Origin: Squalus acanthias
Taxonomy: Eukaryota
Length of the DNA stretch: 64,000 bases
Direction: 5' to 3'
Assembly: GCA_030390025.1 (NCBI GenBank)
Contig: JASTWF010000180.1
Location: forward strand, 62,001 to 126,000
Each line of letters begins with the position of its first letter. Position 1 is the stretch's first letter. The translations under genes were made by a program, and so were the position numbers. Below, piece by piece: positions 1 to 48,112 of the stretch. The notes under the pieces were generated by a model. The model had not been told where the DNA came from, ran no database searches, and saw only the letters and a program-made list of their open reading frames with translations.

Positions 1-58
1 TGACCATCTCGGAGCTGCGGCTTACTGACACCGCGGTGTATTACTGTGCACTGAGTCT
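1..58 (+). CDS. TCR alpha/delta V, family A, 3' end only (..TISELRLTDTAVYYCALS)
   Basis: FR3 DTAVYYC motif directly followed by an RSS; 5' part lies outside the window. Confidence 0.9.
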
Positions 59-97
59 CACAGTGATGGGAACGAGCTAAAGCCTCGTACAATAACT
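59..97 (+). promoter_or_regulatory. 23-RSS
   Basis: CACAGTG (59-65), 23-bp spacer, ACAATAACT (89-97). Confidence 0.95.
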
Positions 98-399
98 GCC
101 GCAGGTTTCTGGGTCACAGCTGCTGTCTATTGTGGGCTGTTTATCACAGCGGGTCAGACACTGACACGTGAATACATTCCTGTGCGCGCAGACCCCGATC
201 AGAATCCACATAAAACTCATACCAAACCGTCACATCGAATACTGATTCCGTCTGATTATTGTATTAACTGTGTGAGGTCAGCATTGACTGCTGTTTATTT
301 ATGTATTTCTGGGAACACGCCAGTCTCTTTGAGAATAAACACACCTGCGGGTTACTGGAAGTGGTTCTATCGATGCACCGCTGCTTTGGATATAACACA

Positions 400-1540
400 A
401 GAAATAAGAGCCAGGAGTAGGCCATTTGGCCCATCGAGCCTGCTCCGCCATTCAATCATATCATCTCCGCTTTCCTGCACTATCCCCATATCCCTTGATT
501 TCCTTAATAATCAAAAATCTATCGATCTCAGTCTTGAATATACTTAACGACTAAGGCTCCACAGCCTCTGGGGTAGAGAGTTCCAAAGATTCACCACCCA
601 CTGAGTGAAGAAATTTCTCCTCATCTCAGTCCTAAATGGCAGACCCCTTATTCTGAGACAGTGACCCTTGGTTCTAGACTCCCCAGTCCCTGCATCGACC
701 CTCTCAAGCCCTGTAAGAATTTTGTATGTTTCAATGAGATCGCCTCTCATTCTTCTAAACTCTAGAGAATATAGGCCGAGTCTACTCAATCTCTCCTCAT
801 AGGACAAACCCCCCATCGCAGGAACCAGTCTGGTGAACCTTCGTTGCACTCCCTCTATGGCAAGTATATCTTTGTTTAGGTAAGGAGATCAGAACTGTAC
901 ACAACACTCCAGGTGTGGTCTCACCAGGGCCCTATATAATTGCAGTAAGACGGCTGTACACTTCTGCACAAATACTCTTCTAAAAATGACAACATACCAC
1001 TGGCTTTCCTAATTGCTTGCAGTACCTGCATGTTAACTTCAGTGATTCGCGTAAAAGGACGCCCAGGTCCCTCTGAACACTAACATGTCCCAACCTCTCA
1101 CCATTAAAACATACTCTGTTTTTCCATTGGATAACTTCACATTTCTCCACATTATATTCCATTTGCCATGTTCTTGCTTACTCATTTAGCCTTTTTATAT
1201 CCCCGTGAAGCCTCTTCACATCCTCCTCACAACTTACATTCCCATCCAGCATTGTATCATCAGCAAACTTTAATATATTACATTTGGTCCCCTCATCCAT
1301 ATCATTTATGTCGATTAGGAATAGCTGAGGCCCAAGCACTGATCCTTGCGGTAACCTACTAGTTACAGCCTGCCAACCCGAAAATTAACCGTTTATTCCT
1401 ACTCTCTGTTTTCTGTCCGTTAACCAATCCTCAATTCATGCAAGTATATTACCCCCAATCTCATAAGCCCTAATTTTCTTTGAGACCCTCTTGTGTGGCA
1501 CCTTATCGAATGCCTTCTGAAAATACAAATGCACCACATC
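400..1540 (-). mobile_element. CR1/HER1-type LINE 3' fragment
   Basis: ORF2 C-terminal motifs QRRFTRLVP, RMRGDLIETYKI, FRTEMRRNFFTQ; decayed. Confidence 0.9.
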
Positions 1541-1544
1541 AACA

Positions 1545-2450
1545 ATAATGGAAAATGTGAGGTTATGCACTTTGGCAGGAAAAATCAGAGAGCAAGTTAT
1601 TATCTTAATGGCGAGAAACTGGAAAGTACTGCAGTAAAAAGGGATCTGGGGGTCTTGGTGCAAGAAAATCAAAAAGTTAGTATGCAGGTGCAGCAGGTGA
1701 TCAAGAAAGCCAATGGAATGTTGGCTTTTATTGCTAGGGGGATAGAATATAAAAACAGGGAGGTATTGCTGCAGTTGTATAGGGTATTGGTGAGACCACA
1801 CCTGGAGTACTGCATACAGTTTTAAGAAAAGACATATTTGCTCTCGAGGCAGTACAAAGAAAGTTCACTCGGTTAATTCCGGGGATGAGTGGGTGGACAT
1901 ACGAGGAGAGGTTGAGTAGATAGGGACTCTACTCATTGGAGTTCAGAAGAATGAGAGGCGATCTTATTGAAACATATAAGATTGTGAAAGGGCTTGATTG
2001 GGTGGACGCGGTGAGGATGTTCCCAATGATGGGTGAAACTAGAACTAGGGGACATAATCTTAGAATAAGGGGCTGCTCTTTCAAAACTGAGATGAGGAGA
2101 AACTTTTTCACTCAGAGGGTAGTGGGTCTGTGGAATTTGCTACCCCAGGAAGCTGTGGAAGCTCCATCATTAAATAAATTTAAAACAGAAATAGACCGTT
2201 TCCTAGAAGTAAGGGAATTAGGGCTTACGGGGAGCGGGCTGGAAATTGGACATGAGTTTGAGTTCGGATCGGTCAAGGCCCTGTGGGTGGCGGAGCGGGC
2301 CCAGGGGCCGAGTGGCCTGGTCCTGCTCCTACTTCTTGTGTTCTTTAGAGTTGAGGTTGGATCAGATCAGCCATGATCTCATTGAAAGGCGGAGCAGGAT
2401 CGAGGGTCCGATTGGTCTACTCCTGCTCCTATTTCTTATGTTCTTATTGC
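1545..2450 (+). mobile_element. CR1/HER1-type LINE 3' fragment, nested in opposite orientation
   Basis: KCEVMHFG, LVRPHLEYC, RGDLIETYK motifs; 3' tail cctgctcctatttcttatgttctt. Confidence 0.9.
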
Positions 2451-3303
2451 CCCCTTAGCTATGCTGCTAGTTACAACCTCAAAAAATTCTAACAGATGAG
2501 TCAAACACTCACGGCAAACGGACAAATAGTGATTGGTTTAAAATACCAGTCTACAGTGTAGACGGAGATTGGTCGGTTGGGGAAGACTCCAATAATTCTA
2601 ATAACGTTATTAAACATTGCTCACTATTAAAGACCCTTGCACATGTTAAAACTAACAATCTGCATTATAAGTAGATTCCAGTGGGAAAAATCAGGACAAG
2701 ATTAGAAGCTGCAAACGAACTTTAATGGACTAATAACCTGTAAGAACAGAAGTGTTGTGTTCCAGGCTCCGGGCCAGATAGATAGAGGAACCGACTGAAT
2801 AAAAAAGGTTGATATAGAAGATATAAGAAAAGACGAGATAGTGAGGTTCAAACCGCATAAAGAACCAAGTACAAAGACGAAGTAACGTCGTACAGACTCA
2901 TTACAGAGAATTTCATAATTTACAAGATGTTTTAATGGTTTAACGTGTTACGTATTAATTATGGGGTGTTGACATGTTATCATCACGTTCCTTAAACGTT
3001 ACTAAGCCTGTAACACAAAAGATGAAAACACTTGAAAGGTACAAGCTTGAGGCAGTCAAGGAACAAGAGGTTAACGCTGATCCCAATAGGAACGAAAAAT
3101 ATCAGTTCTATTGTATCTATTGCCTTAGCTGGTAAGATTGTTAGCAACCTGAATTATTAACTGTGCTTTGTCTTGCACTAAAGAAAACTGGTTAATTACC
3201 ACAACCGTTTTGGCACAGTCTCCTGCTGAATGTCCGAATGTGACTTGAAACAGTACTTCACCGAATTGAAGGCAAAATGACCGGGGAGCAGTCCTGAGTT
3301 ATT

Positions 3304-3318
3304 CCACTAGATGGCAGC
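3304..3318 (+). promoter_or_regulatory. candidate CTCF site
   Basis: CCACTAGATGGCAGC matches the CTCF core consensus; motif only. Confidence 0.5.
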
Positions 3319-3548
3319 AAACACCCACTAATCACGCGTCCGAACCTGTCTTGAAAGGTCGATCTCTGCGCGTGTTATTCAGGAATCAACACACACAATC
3401 GACCAATAACGACTGAACTAAGGTACTGGAGATTAGGTCAGCCACCGGCTGGTCTGGCACCTGTTTACCAGCAACTCCGTGATTTACAATCGTCTAGAAC
3501 TATTGAGAAATCAATCAGGTTAAATTGCTGAATTCATCTGTCCGGGTA

Positions 3549-3674
3549 AAGCCAACTCACGGTCATTGACTTTGGGCGGAAATCGATGATTGAACACGGT
3601 TGCAGAACTGCTGCTGGTGATTTCTTCACTTGAACTCAGGTTGACGATAACAGTTGGATGATGCAACACACGAT
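3549..3674 (-). pseudogene. IgH (IgM CH2-like) constant exon relic, copy 1
   Basis: Acceptor ttcttgcag, then DRVLHHPTVIVNLSSSEEITSSSSATV, a frameshift, then CSIIDFRPKSMTVSWL (C1-set strands A-C); truncated. Confidence 0.72.
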
Positions 3675-3729
3675 CTGCAAGAAAATAAATTATATGGGGA
3701 TTATTGTTCGCAATCCAAACAATTTCTGT

Positions 3730-4590
3730 ACTAGACCGTGTCCCTGTTTATATTAAACTAGACCCTGTCTATATTTGTATTAAACTATACCCTATCTCTA
3801 TTTATATTACACTAGACCCTGTCTCTGTTTATATTACAGTAGACACTGTCTCTGTTTATATTAGACAAGACCCAGTCTCTGTTTATATTACACTAGAACC
3901 GGTCTCTGTTTATATTACACTCAAACATTTCTCTGTTTATATTACACTAGACCCTGTCTCTGTTTACATTACACAAGCCCTGTCTCTGGTTATATTACAC
4001 TAGGTCCTGCCTCTGTTTATAATACACTAGGCCTTGTCTCAGCTATTGCTGCACTAGTTCATGCCTTTTTTAATATATTACACTGAGTACTGTCTCAGTT
4101 ATCTCTGCACTGGGCCATGCCTGTGTTTACGTAACACTAGGCCCTGTCTCAGTTATCACTGCACTAGACCCTGTCTTTGTTGATATAACACTAGGACCTC
4201 TCTCTGTTTATATTACACTACACGCTGTCTCTGTTTTTATTACACTAGGTGCTGCCTCTGTTTATATTACACTAGACCCTGTCTCTGTTTATATTACACT
4301 ACACGCTGTCTCTGTTTATATTGCACTCGGCCCTGTCTCTGTTTATATTACACTACACGCTGTATCTGTTTATATTACACTAGGTGCTGCCTCTGTTTAT
4401 ATTACAGTAGGGCTTGTCTCCGCTATTGCTGCACTAGACATGTCTCTGTTTATATTACATTACACCATGTCTCTCACTGTATTACACTAGGGCTGGTCTC
4501 AGCTATTGCTGCACTAGACCATGTCTCTGTTTTTATATTACACTAAGCCAGGCTCAGTTATTACGACACTAGACCATGCCTCTCTTTATA
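3730..4590. repeat. 27-bp minisatellite (ctagaccctgtctctgtttatattaca)n
   Basis: Direct tandem repeats; inverted paralog at 30390-31770. Confidence 0.95.
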
Positions 4591-5669
4591 TTTCACCGTT
4601 GTACAACTCATTTTAAATACATGTGCAGTGAGTCAGAGAGTTTACAAATAGAGACATTAATCCACCTGACTGTAGCTCGGTGGCTCGGACCTCTTCTGAT
4701 ATAGCACAGACTTGCAACTCAAAACCCCCATTCGCCCAGTCCAGAGCCCCTCAGCTACTATGTAACAGCTGTCTGCATCTCAGACACCGCCTTCCACGTA
4801 TGGCAGAATCCAAGGGAAGACGGTCTGTAGCCGGTGGGGGTCCGGGGTGCGGTGCTGGACAGTCTCCCTGGTGGCAGTGTCCTGAGTGATTCGTACCTGA
4901 GCCTGTGTGGCACATCTCCCGCTCGGAACCGGGTCTAAGGGTTGCTACCTGAGTAAAAACGTTCAACCATTGCGTACAGACAGGCACTGACCTGAGCCAC
5001 CGTGAGGGCCCTTATACCCCTGCACAGGTACATTGCTCAGATCTTCCTTTCATTCAGTCACTTCCATTGTCCTTTTTCATCAGTTTCTTTGTTTTATTTT
5101 AACCAGCTGTTTATTTTTGTGTTACCTGTCTGTTCATTGTTCCTCTGTTTCCAATGATTTTCACCATCTGTTCTGCTAATTTCTCCCCATCTCCCTCATT
5201 CCCTATGCTTTCCACAGATTCCCCCCCGCCCCATTCCCATGTCCCCAGGTGACACCGTGCAGTCTGTTGTCCGTGTGAGTATCCCTGAGATTCAGTCTCT
5301 CTGGCCCTGTGTCCGTGTGAGTCACTCTACCTCAGTCAGGCTGTGTTTCATTAGCTCTCTCATTGTCCATTTTTATTACACAGAAGAGTTCCGACCCCAT
5401 AGCCCCACTGCACGGCTTCAGGGGTCATCCCAATGGCGAAATAGTCAGCACAACCCTTATTAACCTGTTGCCTTTCTGTGACTTCATATTTATAAATACA
5501 CGTCTGGTTCAATCTCCCTCTGTTGGTGTCTCACTGTATGACTGTACTCAGTCAAACCTTTAGCTCTCTCTCCCGTATTTTGGTGACTCTCTGCATCACT
5601 CACTGTACTCAGTCTCACCTTTATCTATCTCCCTCTTTTGGGTAGCTCGCTCAAAGTGTACAGGCAGAC

Positions 5670-5955
5670 AGAGGCTTGATCTATGGAGGTGGTTTCACTC
5701 ACCTGCACAGCTCCATTGCTCCAATCTTTCACCATGGAGGACAGACAGACACTGAGCTGGTCCACCGTGGGTGCCTCCCTCACCTGTATAGGTACAATAC
5801 TCAGATATTTAAGCATGGAGAGCAGACATTGGTGGGGCTGATCCGCCGTGGGGGTCTCAATCACCTGCACAGTTCCATTGTTCAAATTTTTAACCATGTA
5901 GGGCAGACAGGCACTGGGCTGATCCACCGTGGGGGGCTCACTCACCTGCACAAGT
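5670..5955. repeat. ~81-bp degenerate tandem repeat
   Basis: ccaccgtggggg..cacctgcacag.tccattg unit x3-4; related copies at about 6425-6530, 28255-28360, 29030-29305. Confidence 0.75.
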
Positions 5956-7161
5956 ACGAATCCTGAGGGAGCAGCGAGAAACATCAACACTTAGCGGACA
6001 GAAACATTAATCAGATGAATTGGAGCTTGCAAATTCACAGCTTCCGCTCGCAGATTTGACCCTTTCTAATCTGCACAACAAGCAACAATAACCCACAACC
6101 CATATTCACAACAACTGACTTTCATTTCCTTTCAGTTCAACTTGCGACGAATGTCCGTGATCTTTATGTACATGCTCCAGACAGTAAGAGTGTTTTCCCT
6201 CCTGCATTTCCCAGTTTCCGTGATTCCTTTCTCCGTGTAGTTGCACTGGGATAAACCTGGTGCAGACTGGTTCCCCTTGCTCCGGGAGAACAAATAATCG
6301 AGGCCCAGACAGGCCGCTGGCCACCGGTTTGTCAGCCATCAGCCTTGTTACCTGTATAAAGGCCTTTCACTCATCTACCTGCATTTGTATGTATATACAA
6401 TGCAGGTAGATGAGTGAAAGCCGCATTGTACCATACAAGTGAGGGAGCCTCCCCACGTTGGACAAGCTCAGTTTCTGTCAGTCCTCCATGGTTAAAGCTT
6501 TCAGCAATGGAGCTGTGCAGATGAGTGAATATATATTTTATATACGTATATATTTATAAATAATACAGATAAATATGTATTAATATAAGCAGTTTAAGGT
6601 CAACCACTGTCCCATCTGATGTTCACACACTCCCATTCTGCTCAAACCATCAGTCACTTCGCATTTCATTGATATAATCGGTGGCTTTTTTCTAATTTAC
6701 CGCATCAATCTGTTCTAAACCTAGAGGACCCGCTGGCATTAATATGCCCCTTTATTTCGGCTGTGGGTAGTTGTAATGATCAGTGAGCAGCTCTTTTAAT
6801 GGGAGCCTCCGGCACTGATGCCAGAAGAACATTAACTATTTTTCTTCACTGGCCCCACCTCAGAGACTGACCCTGTTAAAGAACCAGCATTGGGTTTAAT
6901 CCTCGTCCAGTTCTCTGTTGTGAAGGAAAAAATTCACTTCCTTCCCGGCAGCTGGCTCTGACGTCATGACTTGGAGAACAAAGGAGCTGTGAACTGATTG
7001 GATGAATTTGAGAAAATTGCACTCGTGACCTGATTTACCATCACCTGCTGACTCTCTCAGGAATGAACCAATCGGCAGAAAGGCCGGCTGTGACTCAACG
7101 TCTTTCTATCAGTTGACGAAAAACAATTTCAGGTTCAAAGCGTCATCAACTCTCTGCAAAC

Positions 7162-15320: not shown

Positions 15321-15339
15321 TAGCCGATGAACAAACATA

Positions 15340-15710
15340 AATCGACTAATTTTCTGTAGGACAGATGTGCTGTGTTCTATGTACCTGACCAGATATTCAG
15401 AAGACTCTGACTGTGTCTGGTGACTGTGCCAATAAACATAATATGCAGCACCGCTTCTTTTCAAGATGTAGGCTAGTGTGACATTACTTTCCTCCTCAAC
15501 CGTCATTTCCGGATCCGGCTATTCCACTGTGTCTTGGTGGCTCCATTCTGACATAAAATATGAGTAATAGTGATTATCATCACCAACGTCACTGTGCTAA
15601 TAATAACATCTGGGTTGTAGCATTCAGGGGGTGAATTGATTTTTATTGGGAAGGAAATACTTACTGAGAAGTGATATAATGATGAGGAGCGGTGCGAGAC
15701 AGTTGCTAAT
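15340..15710 (-). pseudogene. TCR V family D relic
   Basis: Leader-like exon ending ctca|gtaagt; V start ..EMTVEEESNVTL..YYVYWH; no YYC or RSS. Confidence 0.7.
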
Positions 15711-16448
15711 ACTGGTCACTGCGCCTGTAACTCTGCAGTCCGGGAAATCCTCTGTCGGAGCAGAAATACAGATCCTGTATCCCAATGCACTGCTGATCAC
15801 ACCAATGCCATACAGGGAACAGCGGCAACAATCTCTTCAATAACACAGGGCAGGCAAAGTGGGTCAGAGCGAGAGCAGGAAACGGAAGTTGTGGGCGTGG
15901 TTGCAGAAGACTCAAAATTGAGCGAAACCAAGTCTCTGTTTCACGCCAGAAAGTGCCCGACGCCGCTCAGCTGCACTCGAAGTTGATGGAGCGGAAAGTG
16001 GGATGGTTGGGTCTCGAGAATGCTGTGGTCAAACTGCTCCTTTCCACTGAGCAAGTGAATGGGAATAAATAGAGGTGGAGGGAAATGAAGGGTTTCCATT
16101 GCTTCAAAAATAACGACCGGGTTTAATTAGTTCCAATCTAGAATTTTGAGACAAAATATCTGGCACATGTTGTTTTTATATATGATAAATACACCCTAAA
16201 TCCCCGCAATGACCTTATTCCAAATCGGATTGAACAAAATGCGCCAGCAGTGGGCGGCAAACACAAGCATGTTAATTAGAATGTCACGTGATGCAAACAA
16301 CAAGATCAATAACGATCGAAGCCTGAGTGAGGTCACAATGGGGCCGCTCCCTGCAGTGTGCGGGTGGAACATTGAGCTGAACAGGCCCCGGGTTACCGCT
16401 CTCCTTCTCAATCTCTGCATTATTCCATTCCAAGAGATATAATTAGCT

Positions 16449-16951
16449 ATGTTTCTCATAATACTGGCGGCTGTGATGGAGAGTAAGTACTGGACTATGT
16501 TTAAAAAACACAGGTCAGCAAAGTGTTGGTGCAGGGAATCAGAAATATCCATATGATTGACAGTTGGGTGCATGGGCGGTTACACACATTCACAGATAGA
16601 CGCAAATTTAAATCGACCCTGTTTCACCTCCTGTGCTTCTGTTCCCCTATCTTCTCAGGCGGACTATGTGCAGATCCAGTAACTCAGTCTCCGGTGACAA
16701 TTGCCGTTTCAGCAGTGTGTTCGGTGCAGTTAGATTGCGAATTTACAACCCTGGATATTGACTACATGCAATGGTCCCGAAAGAACCCGGCACAGACGCC
16801 AAGCCAGATAATTATCAAAGCAGCAGCAGTGAACGGAGTCGAAATCACCGGACAATATCTGGCGGCTGTTGGCAAGTCTAGAAAGCATGGTTACCTCAAT
16901 ATAAGCGGCCTGAGTGTGGGAGACGGGGCGGTCTATTACTGTGCAGTGAGG
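16449..16951 (+). CDS. TCR V family C, open frame (exons 16449-16482, 16659-16951)
   Basis: Short leader MFLIILAAVME|gtaagt; DPVTQSP..QLDCEF..WSRK..DGAVYYCAVR; RSS CACCGCG-23-ACAAAAAAA (16952-16990); function uncertain. Confidence 0.8.
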
Positions 16952-17295
16952 CACCGCGTCAGATAAAAGGAAAGGCCCCGTACAAAAAAAGAGCGAGTAT
17001 TTACAGCTCCATTGGGTCTGGATGGAAACAGTTAACCGGCCTTTGGTGCTCGGCCATCGGGTTAGCGAGGCACCAGTCTCTGTCTCTTTACCAATAACCC
17101 GCTGATGGTCTGTATCTCAAACGGGAATATTGACTCAAATTCAAGCAGAAGCGTGAGGCGTGGTAATCGGGAACACCTTCAACCGGCCATTGTTTATAAC
17201 TATTTTCCAATATTACAAGCGTAACTTTACATCCTCCTTCTTTCTTTCTGTTATTGAATTTCTCCATTTAATTATCTCTCATATATATATATATT

Positions 17296-17332
<37 letters not shown>

Positions 17333-18260
17333 CTGTGTGTGTGTGTCTGTGTGATTCAGAGAGATAGAGACAACCACAGAGAGGCGCGCGCACACACAGA
17401 ACACACTGAGCAATTTCCGAGGACCAAACTGCTGCATTATCTCTCTGTACATGATTGCAAACCTTCTGTAGGACACAGCCTTCCTGTCTAAAGAGGGATT
17501 CACAAAATGAATGGAGATTTAGCTGAAACGGAAACATTTAGAGGGCTATAGGGAAACAGCAGTTCAGTGGCACAAAACAAATAGCCTACACTGGCATGCT
17601 GGACCGAATGGCCTCCTTCTTTGCTGTATGATTTATGGAATGAGCAGAGAAGTAAAGTTAAAGAGACACTTGGGTGCGACTTGGAACCACGAGAACAGTC
17701 ATCGTGTAGTTTCAGGCTCTGGCCACTTGGTGGCTTCGTGGAGCGAAGTTATGTCGTCTCTCGGTTGTTATTTGCGATATTAAAATCATATTTACTCTCC
17801 CCGCTAATGCTACTGGCATCTCAGTACTGTCTATGTAAAATGCTACTGCTACATGCAATGAGCTAAATAACTAAGGAAGGGGGACAATATCCCTGTTTAC
17901 TGAGTGCAGCGAATGGTAAATCCTTCCACGAAGATTTCCACTGGTCGCTCTCTCTAAATGAACCTTTAACAAATTAAGTTGTTGAAAAATAACGGGTTTC
18001 TGACTTACATAGAAATACCGAATAGAGGAATCTACATTAAAATATTTCGGATGTTGCTGCACACACATCAGTGACCAGAGCTTATCTCCACACTCCCTGA
18101 TGGTGTGAAATTATCAGAAACGGATGTGGCATGGTTGCAGAGTCACTTTCCCTTCTAATCTTATCACAAGGTTAAATAGTTCACCTTGAACCAGTACTGG
18201 TGGCAGTTTTTGCCACAGTAGTGAAGGGGTCGATGCTCATATTGTGAACCCCGGACAGCG

Positions 18261-24893: not shown

Positions 24894-25017
24894 GTTTTGT
24901 GTTTTGTTGCACTTTTGAGAAGGTCCCTGTGCCTCTCACTGTGGAGGCTAAATTATCGCTTCAGTTTCGCGGTGTGAGACCGCCCTCTGGTGAGCACTAA
25001 CTGGAACTCTCAGTATG

Positions 25018-25140
25018 GGTTTTTGTACGTGATCCTCGACATCTCTGTGGCATTGTGGGTTCATGGCACAGAAATACACGGCGGTGTCGGAGATCAGGGG
25101 TTTGCCGATCGTTAGCTCGGTAATCTTGACACTCTCATTA
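25018..25140 (-). pseudogene. orphan V 3' fragment with RSS
   Basis: ITELTIGKPLISDTAVYFCAMN; CACAATG (25051-25057), 24-bp spacer, ACAAAAACC (25018-25026). Confidence 0.85.
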
Positions 25141-25310
25141 TTACACTGCTTTTTCTCCTTCTCTTTCTCATTCTTTCTTTCGTTTTCACTTTCTTTTCCA
25201 CTGTATATTTTACAACTCTCTTCATTTCTCACTTTCTTCAAATCTTTATCTTCTACCAATCGCGTTTTTCCAAACACAGCAGAGCAGGTTTCTGTGTTTG
25301 TTGCACTGTG

Positions 25311-25644
25311 GGCTCACGAAGCAGAGATCGGTGGCGGTGTCTGTCACTCGCGCTTCTCTCACAGTCAGGGCAGTGAGTTCGTTGCCTCCCCCGATTGAAG
25401 CACTGATCCTTCCGTGTTGATCGGCCCCGCTTGTGGCCATCACCAGATGCTGGAGGGTCTGATCCGGGTTCTGTCTGTACCAGTGCAGGAAGGTAAACGC
25501 AGCGACAGTGGTGCAGTTGATGGATACGCTTCTCTCTTCACTAACAACCACCCGCCGAGGGAGCTGCGTCACCTCATCCTCGCCGCTCACATCCGTGCAG
25601 ATCAGAGTGTAAATCAGCAGGGAAACTCTGTAAATCCGGAGCAT
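25311..25644 (-). CDS. single-exon leader+V TCR V gene, probably non-functional
   Basis: MLRIYRVSLLIYTLICTDVSG contiguous with EDEVTQ..INC..WYRQ..TDTATDLC; heptamer CACAGTG 25304-25310; nonamer-like ACAGAAACC only 8 bp away. Confidence 0.85.
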
Positions 25645-25824
25645 TATCCGATCAGATGAAAAGGAGGCTGAAAATATTGCACGCGAAGGTTTGGTTAGAG
25701 CCAGGACACCGATATTATATTCAGCAGCATTAACAAAGAGACAAACTCCCGCTTTACTCAGAGGCTTCTTCCTGTCTAACTAACGAAACAAGCTCAGTCT
25801 CGGGGATTACCCAGCCCGGGCGGC

Positions 25825-26620
25825 CCACACTCAGTGTTTCTCAGTAACGCCAGCTCACATTGTCTCTGCCCACACACAGGGAAGCCCACACTCAGTTTTT
25901 ATCACTAACACCAGCACAAACTCTCTCTGAGCTCACACCGGCCTCCCACATTAAGTATTTCTCACTGACACTAGCTCGCACTGTCTCTGAACTCACACCG
26001 GCCGCTCACACTCAGTGTTTCTCACTGACACCAGCTCACACTGTCTGTGAACTCACACCGGGCCGCTCACACTCAGTGTTTCTCACTGACACCAGCTCAC
26101 ACTGTCTCTGAGCTCACACAGGGCCGCCCACACTCAGTGTTTCTCACTGACACCAGCTCACACTGTCTCTGAGCTCACACCGGGCCGCCCACACTCAGTG
26201 TTTCTCACTGACACCAGCTCACACTGTCTCTGAGCTCACACCGGGCCGCTCACACTCAGTGTTTCTCACTGACACCAGCTCACACTGTCTCTGAGCTCAC
26301 ACCGGGCCGCCCACACTCAGTGTTTCTCACTGACACCAGCTCACACTGTCTCTGAGCTCACACCGGGCCGCCCACACTCAGGGTTTCTCACTGACACCAG
26401 CTCACACTGTCGCTGAGCTCACACCGGGGCGCTCACACTCACTGTTTCTCACTGACACCAGCTCACACTGTCTCTGAGCTCACACCGGGGCGCTCAAACT
26501 CAGTGTTTCTCACTGACACCAACTCACATTGTCTCTGAACTCTCACCAGGCCGCCCACATTCAGTGTTTCACTGACACCACCTCACACTGTCTCTGAGCT
26601 CACACCTGGCCGCTCACAGT
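25825..26620. repeat. 61-bp minisatellite, ~13 units
   Basis: cacactcagtgtttctcactgacaccagctcacactgtctctgagctcacaccgggccgcc. Confidence 0.95.
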
Positions 26621-27059: not shown

Positions 27060-27506
27060 TGGAGCTGTGGGGAATTGTATGTCTGTTTAACTACTTTGAT
27101 TTACTTCTCAGGTAAGTTTTGAGGGTGACGGGCTGATTCTGGGGGATAGACACAGTGAAGTGCCAATGTTTAATTTAATATCGCTCTGGGCTGTTGCAGG
27201 ATATTATCGAGGCGACTCCCTTTCACAGACACCAGCTGCAACCACAGTACGTGAAGGAGACGATGTTCAGTTCCACTGTAATTATACAGCTACAAGCACC
27301 GTCAACCCTTACCAATTCTGGTACCGTCAGTATCCCAGCGAATCCATAGAGTATCTGCTGAAGAGAAACAAATACAAAGAGCACCAAGAGACAGTTCCAG
27401 GGGACCGTTTATCAGCGAAGATCAATGATTTGAACCGAACCATCCCGCTGAAAGTGTCTCAAACACAACTGACAGACTCCGCGGTGTATTACTGTGCACT
27501 GAGCCC
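27060..27506 (+). CDS. single-copy TCR alpha/delta V; V exon 27200-27506 intact, leader exon lacks in-frame ATG
   Basis: GDSLSQTPAA..FHCNY..FWYRQYP..DSAVYYCALS; donor g|gtaagt at 27111; RSS CACAGAG-23-ACAAAAACT (27507-27545). Confidence 0.88.
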
Positions 27507-27719
27507 CACAGAGACACGGAGCTGGCCTCGACATTGACAAAAACTGTCAGAGCGTCGCTCAGCATATCAGCGCGTCAGGGGAGCATTGTGATCAGGAGCG
27601 AGGTTGAGCTGGTCCCTATATTTATGATTAGATCTTCGGCTGTTAATTATAATATATATATACTTTTAGTTATAATAAATATATGATAGAAATATACAAA
27701 TGCAGTTACACGAGTAAAG

Positions 27720-28165: not shown

Positions 28166-30389
28166 CCTGGTTCTTGTAGATTAGACATTAAACTATTTAT
28201 ATTAATACATACTTAGCTGCATTAATTATAAATATATATATATATAAAATATATATTCACTCACCTGCACAGCTCCATTGCTCAAATCTTTAACCATGGA
28301 GGATAGACAGACACTGAGCTTGTCCACCGTGGGGGGCTCACTCACCTGTATGGTACAATGCTCCTTTCACTCATCTACCTGCATTTGTATATATATAAAT
28401 ATACATATAATTATACATACATATATATTCATACAAATGTAGGTAGATGAGTGAAAGGCCTTTATAGAGGTAACAAGGCTGATGACTGACAAACAGGTGG
28501 CCAGCAGCCTGTCTGGGCCTCAATTATTTGTTCTCCGGGAGCAAGGGGAACCAGTCTGCACCAGGGTTATCCCAGGTCAACTACACGCAGAAAGGAATCA
28601 CCGAAACTGGGAAATGCAGGAGGAAAAACATTCTTACTGTCTGGAGCATGTACATAAAGATCACGGACATTCGTCGCAAGTTGAACTGAAATTAAATGAA
28701 AGTCAATTGTTGTGAATGTGGGTTGTGGGTTATTGTTGCTTGTTGTGCAGATTAGAAAGGGTCAAATCTGCGAGCGGAAGCTGTGAATTTGCCAGCTCCA
28801 ATTCATCTGATTAATGTTTCTGTCCTGTAAGTGTTGTCGTAGAAAGCACGACATTTGCCATCTGCATCAGCGTCAGCGCAACATCTCCCCAAAATTGGGC
28901 CCTGGAAACGTCCCCACAGATGCGCTGACAGTGTGTTTTCACCCAGTATCCGAACAGTGTAAAAGTTCTCATCATATCCGCCAGAGGGCGCCGTGGTCAC
29001 ATGTTTCTCGCTGCTCCCTCAGGATTCGTACTTGTGCAGGTGAGTGTGCCCCCCACGGTGTCTCAGCCCAGTGCCTGGCTGTCTTCCATGGTTAACAATT
29101 TGAGCAATGGAACTGTGCAGGTGATTGAGCCACCCACGGCGGATCAGCCCCATCAATGTCTGCTCTCCATGCTTAAATATCTGAGCATTGTACCGATACA
29201 GGTGAGGGAGGCTTCCCACAGTTGTCCAGCTCAGGGTCTGTCTGTCCTCCATGGTTGAAGATTGGAGCAATGGAGCTGTGCAGGTGAGTGAAACCACCTC
29301 CATAGATCAGCCCTTAGTCTGTCTGTACACTTTGAGCGAGCTACCCAAAGGAGTGAGATAGATAAAGGTGAGACTGAGCACAGTGAGTGATGCAGAGAGA
29401 CACCAAAATCAGGGAGTGAGCTAAAGGTCTGACTGAGTACAGTAATACAGAGAGATACCAACAGAGGGAGATTGAATAAGACGTGTATTTATAAATATAA
29501 AGACACAGAAAGGGAACAGGTTAATAAGGGTTGTGCTGACTATTCCACCATTGGGATGACCCCTGAAGCCGTGCAGCGGGGCAAAGGGGTCGGAACTGTT
29601 CAGTGTAATACAAATGGACAATGCGAGGGCTGAGTAAACACAGCCTGACTGAGGTAGAGTGACTCACACGGACACAGGGCCAGAGAGACTGAATCTCAGG
29701 GATACTCACACGGACTGTAGACTGCACGGTGTCACCTGGGGACATGGGAATGGGTGGGAATCTGTGGAAAGCATAGGGAATGAGGGAGATGGGGAGAAAT
29801 GAGCAGAACAGATGGTGAATATCATTGTAAACAGAGGTAGAAATTAACTGACATGTAACAGAAAAATAAACAGCTGGTTACAATAAAACAAAGAAACTGA
29901 TGAAAAAGGAGAATGGAAGTGACTGAATGAAATGAAGATCTGAGCAATGTACCTGTGCAGGGGTATAAGGGCCCTCACGGTGGCTCAGCTCAGTGCCTGT
30001 CTGTACTCAATGGTTGAACGTTTTTACCCAGGCTGCATCCCTTAGACCCGGATCCGAGCGGGAGAGGTGCCACACAGGCTCAGGTAGGAACCACTCAGGA
30101 CACTGCCACATGGAAGACTGTCCATCACCGCACCCCCCACCCCCACCGGCTACAGACCGTCTTACCATAGACTCTGCCATAGGTGGAAGGCGGTGTCTGA
30201 GATGCAGACAGCCGTTAAATAGTAGGTGAGGGCTCTGGAATGGGCTAATGGGGGTTTTGAGTTGCAAGCCTCTGCTATATCAGGAGAGGTCCGAGCCACC
30301 GAGCTACAGTCAGGTTGATGAATGTCTCTATTTGTAAACTCTCTGTCTCACTGCACATGTATTTAAAATGAGTTGTACAACGGTGAAAT

Positions 30390-31770
30390 ATAAACAGAGG
30401 CATGGTCTAGTGTCGTAATTACTGAGACTGGGCTTAGTGTAATATAAAAACAGGGACATGGTCTGGTGTAGCAATAGCTGAGACCAGCCCTAGTGTAATA
30501 TAAACAGAGACATCGTCTCGTGTAATATAAACAGAGACATGGTCTAGTGCAGTAATAGCGGAGACAAGCCCTACTGTATTATAAACAGAGGCAGCACCTA
30601 GTGTTAGATAAAAAGAGACAGCGCATAGTGTAATACAAACAGAGACAGGGCCTACTGTAATATAAACAGTGATAGGACCTAGTGTAATATAAACAGAGAC
30701 AGGGCCTACTGTAAAATAAACAGAGACAGGGTCTACTGTAATATAAACAGAGACAGGGTCTAGTGTAATATAAACAGAGACAGAACCTTGTGTAATATAA
30801 ACAGAGACAGGGCCTACTGTAAAATAAACAGAGACAGGACCTAGTATAATATAAACAGAAACAGGACCTGGTGTTATATAAACAAAGACAGGGTCTACTG
30901 CAGTGATAACTGAGACAGAGCATAGTGTAATATAAGCAGAGACATGGTCTAGTGCATTGATAACTGAGACAAGGCCTACTGTTACGTAAACACAGGCATG
31001 GCCCAGTGCAGAGATAACTGAGACAGTGCTTAGTGTAATATATAAAAAAAAGGCATGAACTAGTGCAGCAATAGCTGAGACAAGGCCCAGTGTAACATAA
31101 AAAGTGGCAGGATCTAGTGTAATATAAACAGAGACAAGGCCCAGTGTAATATAAACAGAGACAGGGCTTCGTGCAATATAAACAGAGACAGGGTCCAGTG
31201 TAATATAAACAGAGACAGGGTCTAGTGTAATATAAACAGAGACAGGGTCTCGTGTAATATAAAATGAGACAGGGTCCAGTGTAATACAAACAGAGACAGG
31301 GTCTAGTGTAATATAAACAGAGACAGGGTCTAGTGTAATTTCAACAGAGACAGGGTCTAGTGTATTATAAACTGAGACAGGGTCTAGTGTAATATAAACA
31401 GAGGCAGGGTCTCGTGTAATATAAGCAGAGAAATGTTCCAGTGTAATATAAACAGTGACAGTGTCTAGTGTAATATAAACAGAGACAGGGTCCAATGTAA
31501 TACGAACAGAGTCAGGTTCTAGTGTAATATAAACAGAGACAGGGTCCAGTGTAATATAAAGAGAGACAGGGTCTAGTGTAATATAAACAGAGACAAGGCC
31601 CAGTGAATTATCAACAGAGACAGGGTCTAGTGTAATATAAACAGAGACAGGGTCTAGTGTAATATAAACAGAGACAGGGTCTAGTGTAATATAAACAGAG
31701 ACAGGGTCGAGTGTAATACAAATATAGACAGGGTCGAGTGTAATATAAACAGGGACATGGTCTAGTACAG
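30390..31770. repeat. 27-bp minisatellite, expanded inverted paralog of 3730-4590
   Basis: (tgtaatataaacagagacagggtctag)n. Confidence 0.95.
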
Positions 31771-31821
31771 AAATTGTTTGGATTGCGACCAATAATCTCC
31801 ATATAATGTATTTTCTTGCAG

Positions 31822-31947
31822 ATCGTGTGGTACATCATCCAACTGTTATCGTCAACCTGAGTTCAAGTGAAGAAATCACCAGCAGCAGTTCTGCAACCGT
31901 GTTCAATCATCGATTTCAAGCCAAAGTCAATGACCGTGAGTTGGCTT
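31822..31947 (+). pseudogene. IgH (IgM CH2-like) constant exon relic, copy 2
   Basis: ttttcttgcag|at; DRVVHHPTVIVNLSSSEEITSSSSATV, frameshift, CSIIDFKPKSMTVSWL. Confidence 0.75.
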
Positions 31948-34900
31948 CCCCGGACAGATTAATTCAGCAATTTAACCTGATTGATTTCTGAAAATTCTAG
32001 AAGATTGGAAATCACGGAGTTGCTGATAAACAGGTGCCAGACCAGCTGGTGGCTGACCTTATCTCCAGTACCTTAGTTCAGCCGTTTTTGGTCGATTGTG
32101 TGTGTTAATTGCTGAATAACACGGGCAGAGATCGACGTTTCCAGAATGGTTCGGACGCGTGATTCCTGGGTGTTTGCTGCCATCTATTGGAATAAGTCAA
32201 TATTGCTCCCCGGTCATTTTGCCTTCAATTCGGTGAAGTGCTGTTTCCAAGTCACATTCGGACATTCAGAAGGCGATTGTGCCAAAACGGTTGTGGTAAT
32301 GAACCAGTTTTCTTTAGTACTAGAAAAAACACAGTTAATAATTCAAGTTGCTAACAATCTTACCAGCTAAGGCAATAGATACAATAGAACTGATATTTCT
32401 CGTTCCTATTGGGAGCAGCGTTAACCTGTTGTTCCTTGACTGCTTCAAGCTTGTACCTTTCAAGTGCTTTGATCTTTTGTGTTATAGTCTTAGTAACGTT
32501 TAAGTAACGTGATGATAACATGTCAACACCCCATAATTAATACATAACATGTTAACCCATTAAAACATCTTGTAAATTATGAAATTCTCTCTAATGAGTC
32601 TGTACGGCGTTACCTCGTCTTTGTACTTGGTTCTTTATACGGTTTGAACCTCACTATCTCGTCTTTTCTTATATCTTCCATATTAGCCTTTTTTATTCAG
32701 TCGGTTCCTCTATCTATCTGGCCCGGAGCCTGGAAGACACCACGTCTGTTCTTACAGGTTATAAGCCATTAAACTTCGTTTGCAGCTTCTAATTTTGTCC
32801 TGATTTTTACCACTGGAATCTCCTTATAATGCAGATTGTTAGTTTTAACATGTGCAAGTGTCTTTAATAGTGAGAAATGTTTAATAACGTTATTAGAATT
32901 ATTAGAGTCTTCCCCGATCGACCTATCACCGTCTACACTGTAGACTGATATTTTAAACGAATCACTATTTGTCCGTTTGCCGTGAGTGTTTGACAAATCT
33001 TTTAGAATTTTTTGAGGTTTGAGCTAGCAGTATAGATAAGGGGGGACCAGTTGATGTGGTGCATTTGTATTTTCAGAAGGCATTCGATAAGTTGCCACAC
33101 AAGAGGTTCTAAAAGAAAATTAGGGCTCATGGGATTGGGGATAGTATACTAGCATGGATTGAGGATTCGTTAACGTACAGAAAACAGAGAGTAGGAATAA
33201 AGGGCTCATTATCGGGTTGGCAGGCTGTAACTAGTGGGTTACCGAAAGGATCAGTGCTTGGACCTCAGCTATTCACAATCTACATCAATGATATGGATGA
33301 GTGGACCAAATGTAATATATCCAACTTTGCTGATGTTACAAAGCTGGGTGGGAATGTAAGTTGCGAGGAGGATGTGAGGAAGCTACAAGGGGATATAAAC
33401 AGGCTAAGTGAGTGAGCAAGAACTTGGCAAATGGAATATAATGTGGAGAAATGTGAAGTTATCCACTTTGGTAGGAAAAATAGAAAAGCAGAGTATTTTT
33501 GAAATGTTGACAGATTGGGAAATGTTGGTGTTCAGAGGGCCCTGTGTGTCCTTGTACATGAATCACTGAAAGTTAACATGCAGGTACAGCAAACAATTAG
33601 GAAAGCACGTGGTATGTTGTCATTTTTACAAGAGGATTTGTGTATAAGAGTACAGCCGTCTTACTGCAATTATATAGGGCCCTGGTGAGACCACACCTGG
33701 ACTAATGTGTACAGTTCTGATCTCCTTACCTAAGGAAAGATATACTTGCAATAGAGGCAGTGCAACGAAGGTTCACCAGACTGGTTCCTAGGTTGAGGGG
33801 ATTGTCCTATGAGGAGAGATTGAGTAGACTTGGCCTATATTCTCTGGAGTTTAGAAGAATAAGATGTGATCTCATTGAAACATACAAAATTCTTACAGGG
33901 CTTGAGAGGGTAGATGCAGCGAGGATGATTCCCCTGGCTGGGGAGTTCCTCTCTTTCATCAGACCCTATGTTCCCCAGAGATGTCGGGGAACATAGGGTC
34001 TGATGAAAGGGAGGAACTGAAAGAAATCAGTATTTGTAGGGAAATGCTGTTAGGGAAATTGGCGGGTTTGAAGTCCGTAAAATCCCCAGGGCCTGATAAT
34101 CTACATCCTAGGGTACTTAAGGTAGTCGCCCTAGAAATATTGATGCATTGCTGATCATCTTCCAACATGCGATGGAATCTGGAACAATACCCATGGATTG
34201 GAGGGTAGCTAATGTTACCCCACTATTCAAAAAAGGTGGTAGAGAGAAAACGGGGAATTACAGACCGGTAAGCCTGACATCGGTAGTGGGGAAAATGCTA
34301 GAGTCCATTACAAAAGATGTAATAGCAGAGCACTTGGAAAACAGTGACAGGATCGGACAAAGTCAACATGGACTTACAAAAGGTAAATCGAGCTTGACTA
34401 ATCTACCGGAATTTTTTGAGGATGTAACTGTTAAAATAGTAAAGGGAGAACCAGTGGATGTGATGTATTTGGACTTTCAAAAGGCTTTCGATTAGGTCCC
34501 GCATAGGAGATTAGCGTGTAAAGTTAAGGCACATGGGATTGGAGGCAAGGTATTGACTTGAATAGAGAACTGATTGGCAGACAGACAGCAAAGATTTGGA
34601 ATAAACAGGTCTTTTTCTGAGTGGCAGGCAGTGACTGGTGGGGTACCGCAGTGATCGGTCCTTGGACCCCAGCTATTCACAATATATATTAATGATCTAG
34701 ACAAGGGAACTGGATGTAATATCTCCAAGTTTGCAGACGGCACAGGGCTGGGTGGGCGTGTGTGCTGTGAGGAGGATGCCGAGAAACTCCAGGATGATTT
34801 GGACAGGTTGGGTGATTGGGCAGAAGTATGGCAGATGCAATATAACGTGTATAAATGCCTGGTTATCCACTTTGGTGTCAAAAACAGGAAGGCAGATTAT

Positions 34901-35165
34901 TATCTGAATGGCAATAGATTGGGAGAAGGGGAAGTGCAACGAGAGCTGAGTGTTCTTGTGCACCAGTCGCTGAAGGTAAGCATGCAGGAGCAGCAGGCGG
35001 TTAAGAAGGCAAATGGTATGTTGGCCTTCGTAGCGAGAGGGTTTGAGTACAGGAACAAGGATGTCTTGCTGCAGTTGTGATGTGGAGATGCCGGCGTTGG
35101 ACTGGGGTGGACAAAAATGAGATGTCGCACCACACCAGGTTATAGTCCAACAGATTTATTTAATT

Positions 35166-35203
35166 TTACAAGCTTTCGGAGCTGTCGCTCCTTCGTCAGG
35201 TAA
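35166..35203 (-). ncRNA. minimal type I hammerhead ribozyme motif
   Basis: ttac CTGACGA a ggagc gaca gctcc GAAA gctt gtaa on the minus strand. Confidence 0.68.
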
Positions 35204-35407
35204 GTTAACAATGAGAGAATCTCCCAGAATTCACAATTTAAACCCAGACAAAATCTATTCACATTATTCGCTACAACAAAGAGCACAGCCAAGACCCCCT
35301 GGGACACATCTCATTGTCTTGGCTGTGCTCTTTGTTGTAGCGAATAATGTGAATAGATTTTGTCTGGGTTTAAATTGTGAATTCTGGGAGATTCTCTCAT
35401 TGCTAAC

Positions 35408-35445
35408 TTACCTGACGAAGGAGCGACAGCTCCGAAAGCTTGTAA
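35408..35445 (+). ncRNA. minimal type I hammerhead ribozyme motif
   Basis: ttac CTGACGA a ggagc gaca gctcc GAAA gctt gtaa. Confidence 0.68.
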
Positions 35446-36079
35446 AATTAAATAAATCTGTTGGACTATAACCTGGTGTTGTGCGACTTCTCATTTTTGC
35501 TGCAGCTGTACAGGGCCTTGGTAAGACCACATCTTGAGTATTGTGTGCAGTTTTGGTCGCCTTGTCTGAGGAAGGAGGTTCTTGCCATGGAAGGAGTTCA
35601 GCGAAGATTCACCAGGCTGATACCTTGCATGGCAGGAATGACGGATGAGGAGAGATTGGTCGATTGGGCTTATACTCGCTGGAGATTAGAAGAATGAGAG
35701 GGGATCCCATTGAAACTTATAAAATTCTGACAGGACTGGACGGACTAGACGCAGGAAGGATTTTCCCGATGGTCGGGGATTCCAGAACCAGGGGTCACAG
35801 TCTAAGGATAAGGGGTAAGCCATTTAGGACAGAAATGAGGAGGAATTTCTTCACCCAGAGAGTGGTGAACCTGTGGAATTCTCTACCACAGAAGGCAGTA
35901 GAGGCCAATTCATTAAATATATTCAAGAAGGAGTTGGATATATTTCTTAAGGCTAAAGGGATCAAGGGATATGGGCAGAAAGCAGGGACAGGGTTCTGAA
36001 TTTGGATGATCAGCCGTGATCGCATTGAATGGCGAAGCAGGCTAGAGGGATCGAAAGGCCTACAGCTGCTCCTATCTTA

Positions 36080-36501
36080 CATAGAAACATAGAATCTAGG
36101 AGCAGGAGTAGGCCATTCGGCCCGTCGAGCCTGCACCACCATTCAATACGATCATGGCTGATCATTCAAATCCAGTACCCTGTCCCTGCTTTAATCCCCA
36201 CAGTACACATATCCCACCCGACCTCCGTAACCCCACGTATTTAATTCCCCCAAACATATCCCATCCTATCCCCATAACCCCACATATTTAATCCCCCCCT
36301 AACACTAAGGGTCAATTTATCATAGCCAAATCAACCTAACCCGCACATTTTTGGACAGTGGGAGGAAACCGGAGCACCCGGAGGAAACCCACGCAGACAC
36401 GGGGAGAATGTGCAAACTCCACACAGACAGTCACCCGAGGTCAGATTCGAACCCGGGTCTCTGGCGCTGTGAGGCACCAGTGCTAACCACTATGCCACCG
36501 T
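36080..36501 (-). mobile_element. HE1-like SINE
   Basis: Reverse complement of the 7456-7915 element. Confidence 0.88.
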
Positions 36502-37090
36502 CTTCTATGATGCTATGTTTCTAGAACCAAGTGTCACAGTCTCAGAATAAGGGGTCGGCCATTTGGCACTGAGATGAGGAGAAATTTCTTCACTCAGTGG
36601 GTGGTGAATCTTTGGAATTCTCTACCCCAGAGGACTGTGGAGGCTTAGTCGTTGAGTATATTCAAGACTGAGATCGATAGGTTTTTGATTACTAAGGAAA
36701 TCGAGAGATATGGGGATAGTGCAGGAAAGTGGAGATGATCTTATTGAATGGCGGAGCAGGCTCGATTGCCCCAAATGGCCTACTCCAACTCTCATTTTTA
36801 CGTTATATCCGAAGCAGCGGTGCATCGATATAACCAGTTCCAGTAACACGCAGGTGTGTTTATTCTCAATGGGACTGGCGAGTTCCCAGAGATACACAAA
36901 TAAACAGCAGCCATTTCTGCCCTCACACAGTTAATCCAATAATCAGGTGGTACCAGAATTCGATGTAAACGGTTTTATATGGTTTATGCTCGGGGTCTGC
37001 GCGCACAGGAATGTAGTCACGAGTCAGTGTCTGATCCGCTGTGATAAACAGCCCACAATAGACAGCAGCTGTGACCCAGAAACCTGCGGC

Positions 37091-37129
37091 AGTTATTGTA
37101 CGAGGCTTCAACTCATTCCCATCACTGTG
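37091..37129 (-). promoter_or_regulatory. 23-RSS
   Basis: CACAGTG, 23 bp, ACAATAACT on the minus strand. Confidence 0.95.
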
Positions 37130-38180
37130 AGCCTCAGTGCACAGTAATACACCGCGGTGTCAGTCAGCCGCAGCCCCGAGATGGTCAATCGGTACAACTT
37201 CTCTGACCGCTGGACTGTATCAGAAAACTGGCCTCGAGCGAAATCCGCCTGATATTCAGAACCGCCGTCTGTGTACCTCTGGACTGCAAACTCGGGCTGT
37301 CTGCCTGGGTATTGGCGGTACCAGTATAAATAATTACCAGCGGCGGAATAGGTGCAGGTTAAAGTGGCATCTTCTCCCTCTGTCTGTGTGAGCGAGGGCT
37401 CCCGCTGAGTAACAGAATCTCCATCGCTCAAATCTAGAACACACGGTTAAAGAAAGCGGAATGAATCGGTTAAAGGGTCAAACTGAATCAAGTAACATTG
37501 AGTTTTACATAAAATTAAAAATAATTTACTGCACACAAATAGGTCATTCGGCAAACTGTTCTCTGTCCGTGTTTATACTCCCACCCACACTTCATCTAAC
37601 GCTATCAGCATATCTTTCTGCTCCTTTCTGCCTCATGTACTTATCCAGCCTCCCTTAAATGTATCTATGCTATTCGTCTCAACCACCCTCTGTGGTAACG
37701 GGTTCCACATTCTCAACACTCTCTGGGTAAAGAAGTTTCTCCAGTATTCGCTATTGGATTTTTTTGTGATTTTCTTACATTTCTGGCAGCTGGTTTTGGA
37801 GTTCCCCACAAGTGAAAACATATTCTCTACGTCTATCCTATCAATCCCTTTATAATTTTAAAGATGTCTATCAGGACACCTCTCAGCCATCTCTTTTCTA
37901 AAGAAATGAGCCCCAGCTAGCTTAGTCTTTGCTGATAGTTATAATTTCTCAGTTCTGGTGTAATCCTTGTAATTTTCTTCATCCTTCGCCAGTGCCGCTA
38001 TATATTTTTTATAAATGGAGACCAGACCTGTTCACAGTACACGTATTGTCTCACCAAAGGCTAACACAACTTCTCTGGTTTTCAATTGTATTCCTCGAGA
38101 AATGAATCCCTTTTAGAAGTTATAAACTTCTTACCGAACATGAATGTCAACCAGACCACAGCGAGAAAGGAGAGCTGCAT
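37130..38180 (-). CDS. TCR alpha/delta V family A, apparently functional (exons 38180-38135, 37433-37130)
   Basis: Leader MQLSFLAVVWLTFMF, GT-AG intron, open V exon to DTAVYYCALR. Confidence 0.95.
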
Positions 38181-39842: not shown

Positions 39843-40727
39843 CGCTGTCCGGGGGTCACAATATGAGCATCGACCCCTTCACTACTGTCGCAAAAAACTG
39901 CCACCAGTGCCGGATCAGGCTGAACTATTTAACCCTGTGGTAAGCTTAGAAAGGGTAGTGACTCTGCAACCATATCACATCCGTTTGTGATAATTTCACA
40001 ATATCAGGGAGTGGGGAGAATTGCTGTGGTCACTGATGTGTGTGCAGCAACATCCGAAATGTTTCAATGGACATTCCTCTGATCGGCAGTTCTAGGGAAA
40101 TCAGATACTCTATATTATTGAAAAACTTAATTTCTTTAAGGTTCATTTAGACAGAGCGACCAGAGGAAATCTTCGTGGAAGGATTTACCATTTGCTGCAC
40201 TCAGTGAACGGGGAAATTGTCCCCCTTGCTTAGTTTTTTAGTTCATTGCATGTAGCAGTGGCATTTTGCGTAGACAGTACTGAGCTGCTCTTAGTTTTAT
40301 CGGGGAGAGTAAATGTAATTTTAATATAGCAAATAGCGAAACAGAGACTGCAGAAATTCGCTCCACGGAGCCACCAAGTGGTCAGAGCCTGTAACTACAC
40401 GATGACTGTTCTCCTGGGTCAAAGTCACCCCCGAGTGCCTCTTTAACTTGCCTTCTCTGCTCATTCCAAAAATCATACACAGCAAGGAAAGAGGCCATTC
40501 GGCCCATCGTGCCAGTGTCGGCTTTTTAATTTGTGCCACATAACTGCTGTTCTCCTATAGCCCTCTAAATTTCTCCTTTTAGCTAAATATCGATTATTTT
40601 TAGTGAATCGCTGTTTAGACAGGAAGGCTGTGTCCTACGGAACGTTTGCAGTCATATACAGAGAGATAAAACAGCAGTTTGATCCGCAGAAATTGCTGAG
40701 AGCGTTCTGTGTGTGCACACCTCTGTG

Positions 40728-40857
40728 NNNNNNNNNNNNNNNNNNNNNNNNNNNNNNNNNNNNNNNNNNNNNNNNNNNNNNNNNNNNNNNNNNNNNNNNN
40801 NNNNNNNNNNNNNNNNNNNNNNNNNNNNNNNNNNNNNNNNNNNNNNNNNNNNNNNNN
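40728..40857. other. assembly gap (130 N)
   Basis: N run where paralogs carry a (CA)n/(TA)n microsatellite. Confidence 0.99.
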
Positions 40858-47348: not shown

Positions 47349-48112
47349 GGCCCAGAAATTTGACTCGGAGGCTTGCCGCGGGGGTAAGGATCCCCCGCGA
47401 TATCACACACCGCGCCGGCCGTTGTGATTCGGGCCCACACGAACTTCAGCTCCCGGGCCTCTCCCTGCTGCCGGCGCGCAGTGTGTGCGTGTCCCAGAGG
47501 CGCAGTTAGTTCGATGCGACCTCTGGGATCACGTGGGACATGGAGAGCCAATGGCAGCACACCATCTTTCATTCATAGATTTGACATGAGAACTGTCAAA
47601 CCTATGAATACAAATTTCCCCCAAAGGAACAGCTAAGCCTCAAATAAATTTAAAAAAAACCATCACATTAATAAAATAACTATAGTTAAATAAATTAATC
47701 ACTTTAAACAAAAATTTAAATTTTTGCAATAATTTAAATTCTTTTTAAAAGTTATAAAAATAAACTTGCCTTTCTTTAACGTCTCTAAAAATGATAAACC
47801 TGTTGAAATTTTTTTTAAATAATGCTTAATTAACTACTTACCTTGTTAAAAGGGGGTCTTACGCCTCCTTTTGTTCATGGGTAAAATCTTCCATACTTCC
47901 CTTCGGGTTGAAACCAGAAAAAAAACCTAAGTGTGCTGCGTGCGCACAGCTTGTAGTGCGCACGCGGTTCACTTCGGAACCGCCCCCTTCCCCATGCCGG
48001 AAGTGCCGGTTTCCCGCGCATGCGCAGTGCATGCAGGCAATCGGCTCTTCGGGACTGAATACGCGAGAGTCCACAGTGCGTGCTCTCCCGTACTCAGCCG
48101 AATTTTTGGGCC
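47349..48112 (+). mobile_element. MITE-like element, right inversion boundary
   Basis: GGCCCAGAAATT..AATTTTTGGGCC; flanks ATT/AAT. Confidence 0.82.

Follow-up and report, generated by a model that had tools for sequence, protein, structure and literature searches.

The window, by which we mean the whole 64,000-nucleotide stretch of DNA analysed here, carries two copies of the damaged 5' half of a C1-set constant exon, probably IgM Cmu2, within an array of V segments that would fit a TCR alpha/delta locus. According to our preferred reading, to which we assign a probability of roughly three in four, an IgM gene beside the V cassettes was truncated, either by a deletion or through unequal recombination, the half exon became fused to a V cassette, and this unit was copied as the array grew. 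Debris of IgM genes among TCR alpha/delta V genes is already known in shark and ray genomes, and the relic is of this ordinary kind. The first copy (copy A) and its immediate surroundings comprise the following features:

31822..31946, plus strand: copy A of the damaged C1-set constant exon, probably IgM Cmu2; 5' half, with strands A to C (motifs, paralogue contigs)
31811..31821, plus strand: pyrimidine tract and AG acceptor, phase 1 (sequence; a contig of run X13 joins another exon here)
31775..31821, plus strand: 3' end of the upstream intron, homologous to the intron of intact paralogues (paralogue contigs)
31898..31899, plus strand: position of the five lost bases, with a frameshift immediately ahead of the B-strand Cys, common to copies A and B (paralogue contigs, copy comparison)

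The AT at 31822-23 completes the phase-1 codon, and RVVHHPTVIVNLSSSEEITSSSSATV follows in one frame; our reading of the window sequence continues after it with CSIIDFKPKSMTVSWL in the next frame, one base further on. The strand-A P-x-V, the B-strand Cys, the F/Y-x-P and the C-strand Trp of a C1-set exon are all present across this one frameshift. The window contains the Cys..F.P..V.W motif at two sites (31900, plus strand; 3596, minus strand), whereas simulated sequences of 64 kb contain it 0.03 times on average, and none of 100 simulations had a strand-A motif beside it, the strand-A motif having been written after the sequence was known. A chance motif is excluded by this control together with the paralogue contigs described below. 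The phase-1 acceptor and the C1-set signature of the original prediction are thus borne out by the sequence, the chance control and spliced paralogues; its extent (31822..31947) holds for the exon relic and fails at the end, as homology to the paralogue contigs stops at 31946. There is no complete C1 domain: beyond that point, the motif scan found no C-half motif nearby. The shifted frame runs into a stop at 31989-31991 and encodes neither an F-strand Cys nor a membrane anchor or tail, so that no useful protein could be made from the half exon. An open reading frame of 466 codons on the minus strand (30434-31834) was discarded; it is the 27-bp minisatellite listed further below.

Contigs of four public runs (X1, X5, X6 and X13, out of 15 runs listed) were aligned to positions 31775-32400. 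They contain close paralogues of the half exon, mostly 90-95% alike or less. In run X13, which is RNA according to the tool's guess, 14 contigs align (eight at 90-95%, six below 90%), with little beyond the exon covered; this run leaves 21 of the 30 bins empty, every one of them to the right of the exon, which is not evidence on expression, and neither is the fact that no RNA run covering 31775-32700 was listed. Contig depths over the exon range from hundreds to thousands and are not read here as copy number or expression level. One X13 contig has 29 different letters before the acceptor, reading SGSDWSVEMP in frame up to the exon's D in a hand-read loose end; in this paralogue, therefore, another exon is spliced at exactly this acceptor. 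A second X13 contig shows a different, longer and proline-rich 5' end before HPTV (one loose end). The upstream exon end bears no J motif in the two X13 loose ends of 29-30 letters each, and because the exon spliced in front is no J segment, the half exon is a second or later constant exon. The non-J exon upstream in the paralogue argues against a light-chain constant exon, a TCR constant exon or any first heavy-chain constant exon (CH1).

The paralogues also reveal what the relic has lost. One X1 contig has five extra bases behind 31898, which restore one frame through the Cys. The paralogue contigs align over 31817-31946 and diverge from the window behind 31946, where loose ends in three of the four runs (X1, X6 and X13) continue W-L-K-N/K-G-Q and the window turns to unrelated sequence. 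The relic has therefore lost five bases and breaks off after strand C. On the upstream side, one X6 contig shares the intron from 31792 onwards, and one X1 contig whose exon lacks the deletion shares it back to at least 31775, where the contig runs over the end of the aligned stretch, so that some intact genes may share more upstream sequence. A hexamer in the window behind the break, GGACAG at 31952-31957, matches the paralogue continuation, of which just 12-16 loose letters are visible; decayed homology may thus extend slightly beyond 31946.

One X6 contig (31821-31989, no gaps, nine other letters) bridges both lesions, which shows that the damaged form occurs as real DNA elsewhere than in this assembly. 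An assembly artefact is ruled out by this contig and by the existence of two diverged copies in the window. A contig of run X5 (organism B) also lacks the five bases, with only 28 letters past the site, just short of our bridging rule. The deleted form is found in organism A contigs (two runs) and probably in organism B (one contig). Loose ends before 31922 and behind 31957 were also seen in run X5, where a contig may share just the junction region and have other neighbours on either side, possibly by chance at 80% likeness. Of nine well-supported exon differences relative to the paralogues, seven change the residue and two are silent, which suggests an absence of selection, albeit on small numbers.

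The half exon is probably IgM Cmu2, judging by indirect signs and by a presumed likeness to shark IgM. The paralogue sequence is, as we assume, close to Cmu2 of horn shark and nurse shark and presumably a poor match to MHC membrane-proximal domains. Several paralogue contigs with two different 5' ends point to a multi-copy family with divergent 5' ends, which is suggestive, not diagnostic of Cmu2; a unique Cmu2 5' end is described for one nurse shark IgM gene in PMC2435157. In a protein collection of 5.8 billion sequences, which includes shark proteins (two of the eight matches of a V-segment search), none of 26 candidates scored with the read-through query at E up to 10, and Pfam assigned no family to the read-through. 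Of the 1262 PDB matches, the best 60 correspond to the N-halves of C1 domains and are weak (best E 0.0044), comprising 57 antibody chains, nearly all of them light chains, and three MHC class II beta chains. No named shark IgM or other shark constant region was returned by the protein, PDB and literature-motif searches. Short exon motifs gave no match to a shark IgM sequence in literature text or in the accessible supplements of PMC12227049 and PMC3964593, as distinct from figure alignments. The IgM CH2 identity proposed originally agrees with the presumed likeness to shark IgM and with indirect signs; the PDB matches, which were weak, were to light-chain and MHC class II C1 domains.

As predicted originally, the relic lies inside a TCR-type V array. 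The window holds 22 V-like intervals in both orientations, one of them weak. A V-set domain was found by Pfam in all seven candidates tested, and 23-spacer recombination signals (RSS) stand behind the V segments, whose nearest proteins are unnamed shark V models (61-67%). The array would fit TCR alpha/delta, with D, J and C elements outside the window. Together with the paralogue contigs, these data support a pseudogenised second-or-later constant exon of heavy-chain type in such an array. The V segments closest to the argument are:

27190..27545, plus strand: nearest V segment upstream of copy A, 23-spacer RSS at 27507
37091..37446, minus strand: V segment of the duplicated unit, tail to tail with the relic, 23-spacer RSS at 37129

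The counterpart of the latter ends at position 58 of the window, with its RSS at 59. The family with RSS at 59, 13391, 20976, 37129 and 53123 combines a consensus heptamer with a constant variant nonamer, TACAATAAC, in all five copies. Two more V types adjoin each other: at 25017-25139 (minus strand) a 3' V fragment, whose RSS at 25057 is close to consensus, and at 25246-25779 (minus strand) a decayed V. A 61-bp tandem repeat (25816-26618, 13 units, 90% alike) lies between two divergent V genes. The array is composed of repeated and inverted three-V cassettes and includes a 9.7-kb direct duplicate (7916-17470 versus 47543-57191, 94.6% identity). A run of 130 N at about 40720-40850 marks an assembly gap inside a V cassette. 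Nine candidate CTCF-like motifs (3304, 16244, 24993, 28978-28992, 32190, 45035, 48512, 55953 and 59530) match an assumed consensus at one mismatch; several of them repeat along with V cassettes.

An IgH minicluster (V-D-D-J-C) is not seen: no VH, D, JH or CH1 was recognisable in the window, in agreement with the original prediction. Motif scans of the window returned no match for VH or JH, no other constant exon and no convincing 12-spacer or D-type RSS; pieces in heavy decay would escape such scans. At up to three mismatches, the end of the upstream exon (CH1) had no match in the window, and none of 50 open reading frames in the flanks of copy A belongs to an Ig family.

The original prediction reported one relic; copy A stands, and a further copy, located on the minus strand at 3674-3550, had been overlooked. 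It belongs to a large inverted duplication with the following components:

3550..3674, minus strand: half exon copy B, with deletion and break as in copy A; 120/125 bases identical
1..6601: inverted segmental duplicate of 28184-37187; 87-90% identity over blocks, about 93% in repeat-free flanks
28184..32780: relic block of about 4.6 kb, common to copies A and B only, with ordinary V-cassette DNA on its right
31947..32780: sequence replacing the exon's 3' half, within the window confined to the two copies; no Ig family in its open reading frames
30383..31766: 27-bp minisatellite, 51 units, directly upstream of exon copy A
3730..4596: 27-bp minisatellite of copy B, 32 units
29033..29291: 81-bp repeat, 3.2 units, within the relic-specific block

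From left to right, the block consists of the 81-bp repeat, 1 kb of unique DNA, the 27-bp minisatellite, the half exon and 0.8 kb of unique DNA, and its right junction is at about 32780-32785. It has no other homologue in the window and is absent from all other V cassettes; it occurs solely inside the larger V-containing duplicate, never alone, and two of the five V genes of the duplicated unit's family in the window carry it. An inverted copy of the 81-bp repeat was observed at 28256-28458, upstream of the forward array, and more single units near 29940-30018. Within its unit, the half exon has the orientation opposite to that of the V gene. Both copies retain an intact acceptor; they differ at 5/125 positions in the exon versus 54/753 in the flanks (96% versus 93% identity). 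Because the deletion, the break and the V-cassette junction are common to both copies, they predate the duplication, and since the shared lesions lie inside a block unique to the two copies, a single damaged fragment was multiplied by segmental duplication. The idea that the relic is the footprint of a cluster that once sat here is thus half right: with identical lesions in an inverted duplicate, at least one copy was carried in already dead, and decay in place and import of a fragment are indistinguishable.

How could such a unit arise? The preferred account builds on the exon's identity with spliced paralogues, both lesions, the two copies and the limits of the block, which are established; the isotype, the joining event and the absence of function are what we infer. 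The source piece would be an Ig heavy-chain gene, most likely IgM, contributing the end of the Cmu1-Cmu2 intron and the first 125 bases of Cmu2. This piece would have lost five bases and also the exon's 3' half, and would have ended up downstream of a TCR alpha/delta-type V gene, separated from it by about 0.5 kb of cassette sequence. The joining most likely took place in the germline, by deletion or by unequal recombination of V cassettes with an adjacent IgM minicluster, the two being interleaved in elasmobranch genomes. The fused unit would then have been copied by the segmental duplications and inversions that expanded the V array. The half exon would be a non-coding remnant that makes no protein.

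No cluster need ever have stood here if what was captured from an IgM gene was just a small piece, some 155-190 bases comprising the half exon and the intron end before it, and if the remainder of the 4.6-kb block consists of unrelated repeat DNA or of a non-autonomous mobile unit that brought the piece into the V array. One paralogue has an intron whose homology ends at 31792, near the end of the minisatellite, and neither motif scans nor flank open reading frames show any other IgH part in the window; to the right of the break, relatives have different neighbours in the three DNA-type runs (loose ends at 32163, 32216, 32306-7 and 32378-97). Two observations weigh the other way, the X1 contig with an undeleted exon that shares the intron to at least 31775 and the confinement of the block to the V-containing duplicate, never alone; on balance we hold such a capture to be unlikely. 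The relic could also derive from another multi-domain C1 gene, i.e. IgW, IgNAR, UrIg2 or MHC. MHC class II beta-2 domains account for three of the best 60 of 1262 PDB matches (E about 0.07), and, according to table S1 of PMC12227049, IgW 'C only' pieces and UrIg2 also occur in the elasmobranch region. All four runs contain many close paralogue contigs, and these, like the variable 5' ends, fit the picture of a multi-copy IgM family; the likeness of the paralogues would be close to shark IgM Cmu2 and poor to MHC. We regard these other genes as an unlikely source, somewhat less likely than the capture just described.

Quite improbable, in our judgement, is a third possibility, namely that an IgM-derived block was retained or spread for a cis-acting element (insulator, enhancer or hypermutation targeting), or for an acceptor that catches germline V transcripts. 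The intact acceptor in both copies and the higher identity of the exon (96%) than of the flanks (93%) are in line with it, but 5/125 versus 54/753 differences are a small gap. The candidate CTCF-like motif at 28978 in the block of copy A would be a candidate element, but it lies in 28837-29000, a part missing from copy B. According to PMC5931798, shark TCR alpha undergoes hypermutation, for which IgH linkage has been put forward as an explanation in PMC12227049. The presence of the block in just two of five V genes of the family and the seemingly unselected exon substitutions do not favour retention for a function.

IgM remnants in this setting have been listed before. Table S1 of PMC12227049 enters such pieces among the TCR alpha/delta V genes: 'IgM (missing V)' and 'IgM pseudo?' for the great white shark, and for a stingray 'IgM C only', 0.66 kb long, and 'IgM pseudo', 1.9 kb long. 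These entries are the counterpart of the defective IgH clusters that the original prediction mentioned for the nurse shark TCR alpha/delta locus. The elasmobranch IgM/TCR alpha/delta complex of that paper resembles the present case in having IgM-type constant sequence without V, D and J among TCR V segments. In our case, what remains is half of one exon, not enough for a gene model, and it has been amplified within a V cassette, of which the accessible part of that paper makes no mention. Cmu2 of the nurse shark, judging by PMC2435157, PMC4279169 and PMC5192425, is likewise a second-or-later C1 exon with a phase-1 acceptor, close paralogues and a variable 5' end; the relic, in contrast, is frameshifted and cut after strand C, in a window without V-D-D-J, Cmu1, Cmu3, Cmu4 or tail, and its likeness to a named Cmu2 is presumed. 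Ig-TCR chimeras and TCR alpha hypermutation in sharks are the subject of PMC5931798. The IgH V segments in shark TCR delta, the trans-rearrangements and TAILV cited in PMC12227049 and PMC5931798 share the region and the mixing of Ig and TCR elements; those are V segments used in T-cell receptors, whereas the relic is a scrap of a constant exon without RSS or rearrangement role. In the literature covered, i.e. text as opposed to figures and alignments, and without the primary nurse shark locus papers, we came across no account of half exons that had been amplified within V cassettes.

A far-reaching version of the fusion, which we consider very improbable, would see in the relic the scar of one IgM-to-TCR-V fusion that predates the split of at least two sampled species and was amplified many times through the TCR alpha/delta V array, spreading IgM-derived regulatory DNA. 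If this were true, the amplified scar would be a physical cause for the hypermutation of shark TCR alpha/delta genes. The finding would gain greater importance only if regulatory DNA that attracts hypermutation to TCR V genes were demonstrated in the block. The 5-base deletion and the break point may serve as a marker for counting and dating V-cassette duplications and for tracing the donor IgM subfamily, to the search for which the X1 contig with an undeleted exon, sharing the relic's intron to at least 31775, is relevant. For the biology of these genomes, the relic confirms on a small scale that TCR alpha/delta V cassettes and IgM genes were interleaved so closely that the two could fuse and then be copied as one.
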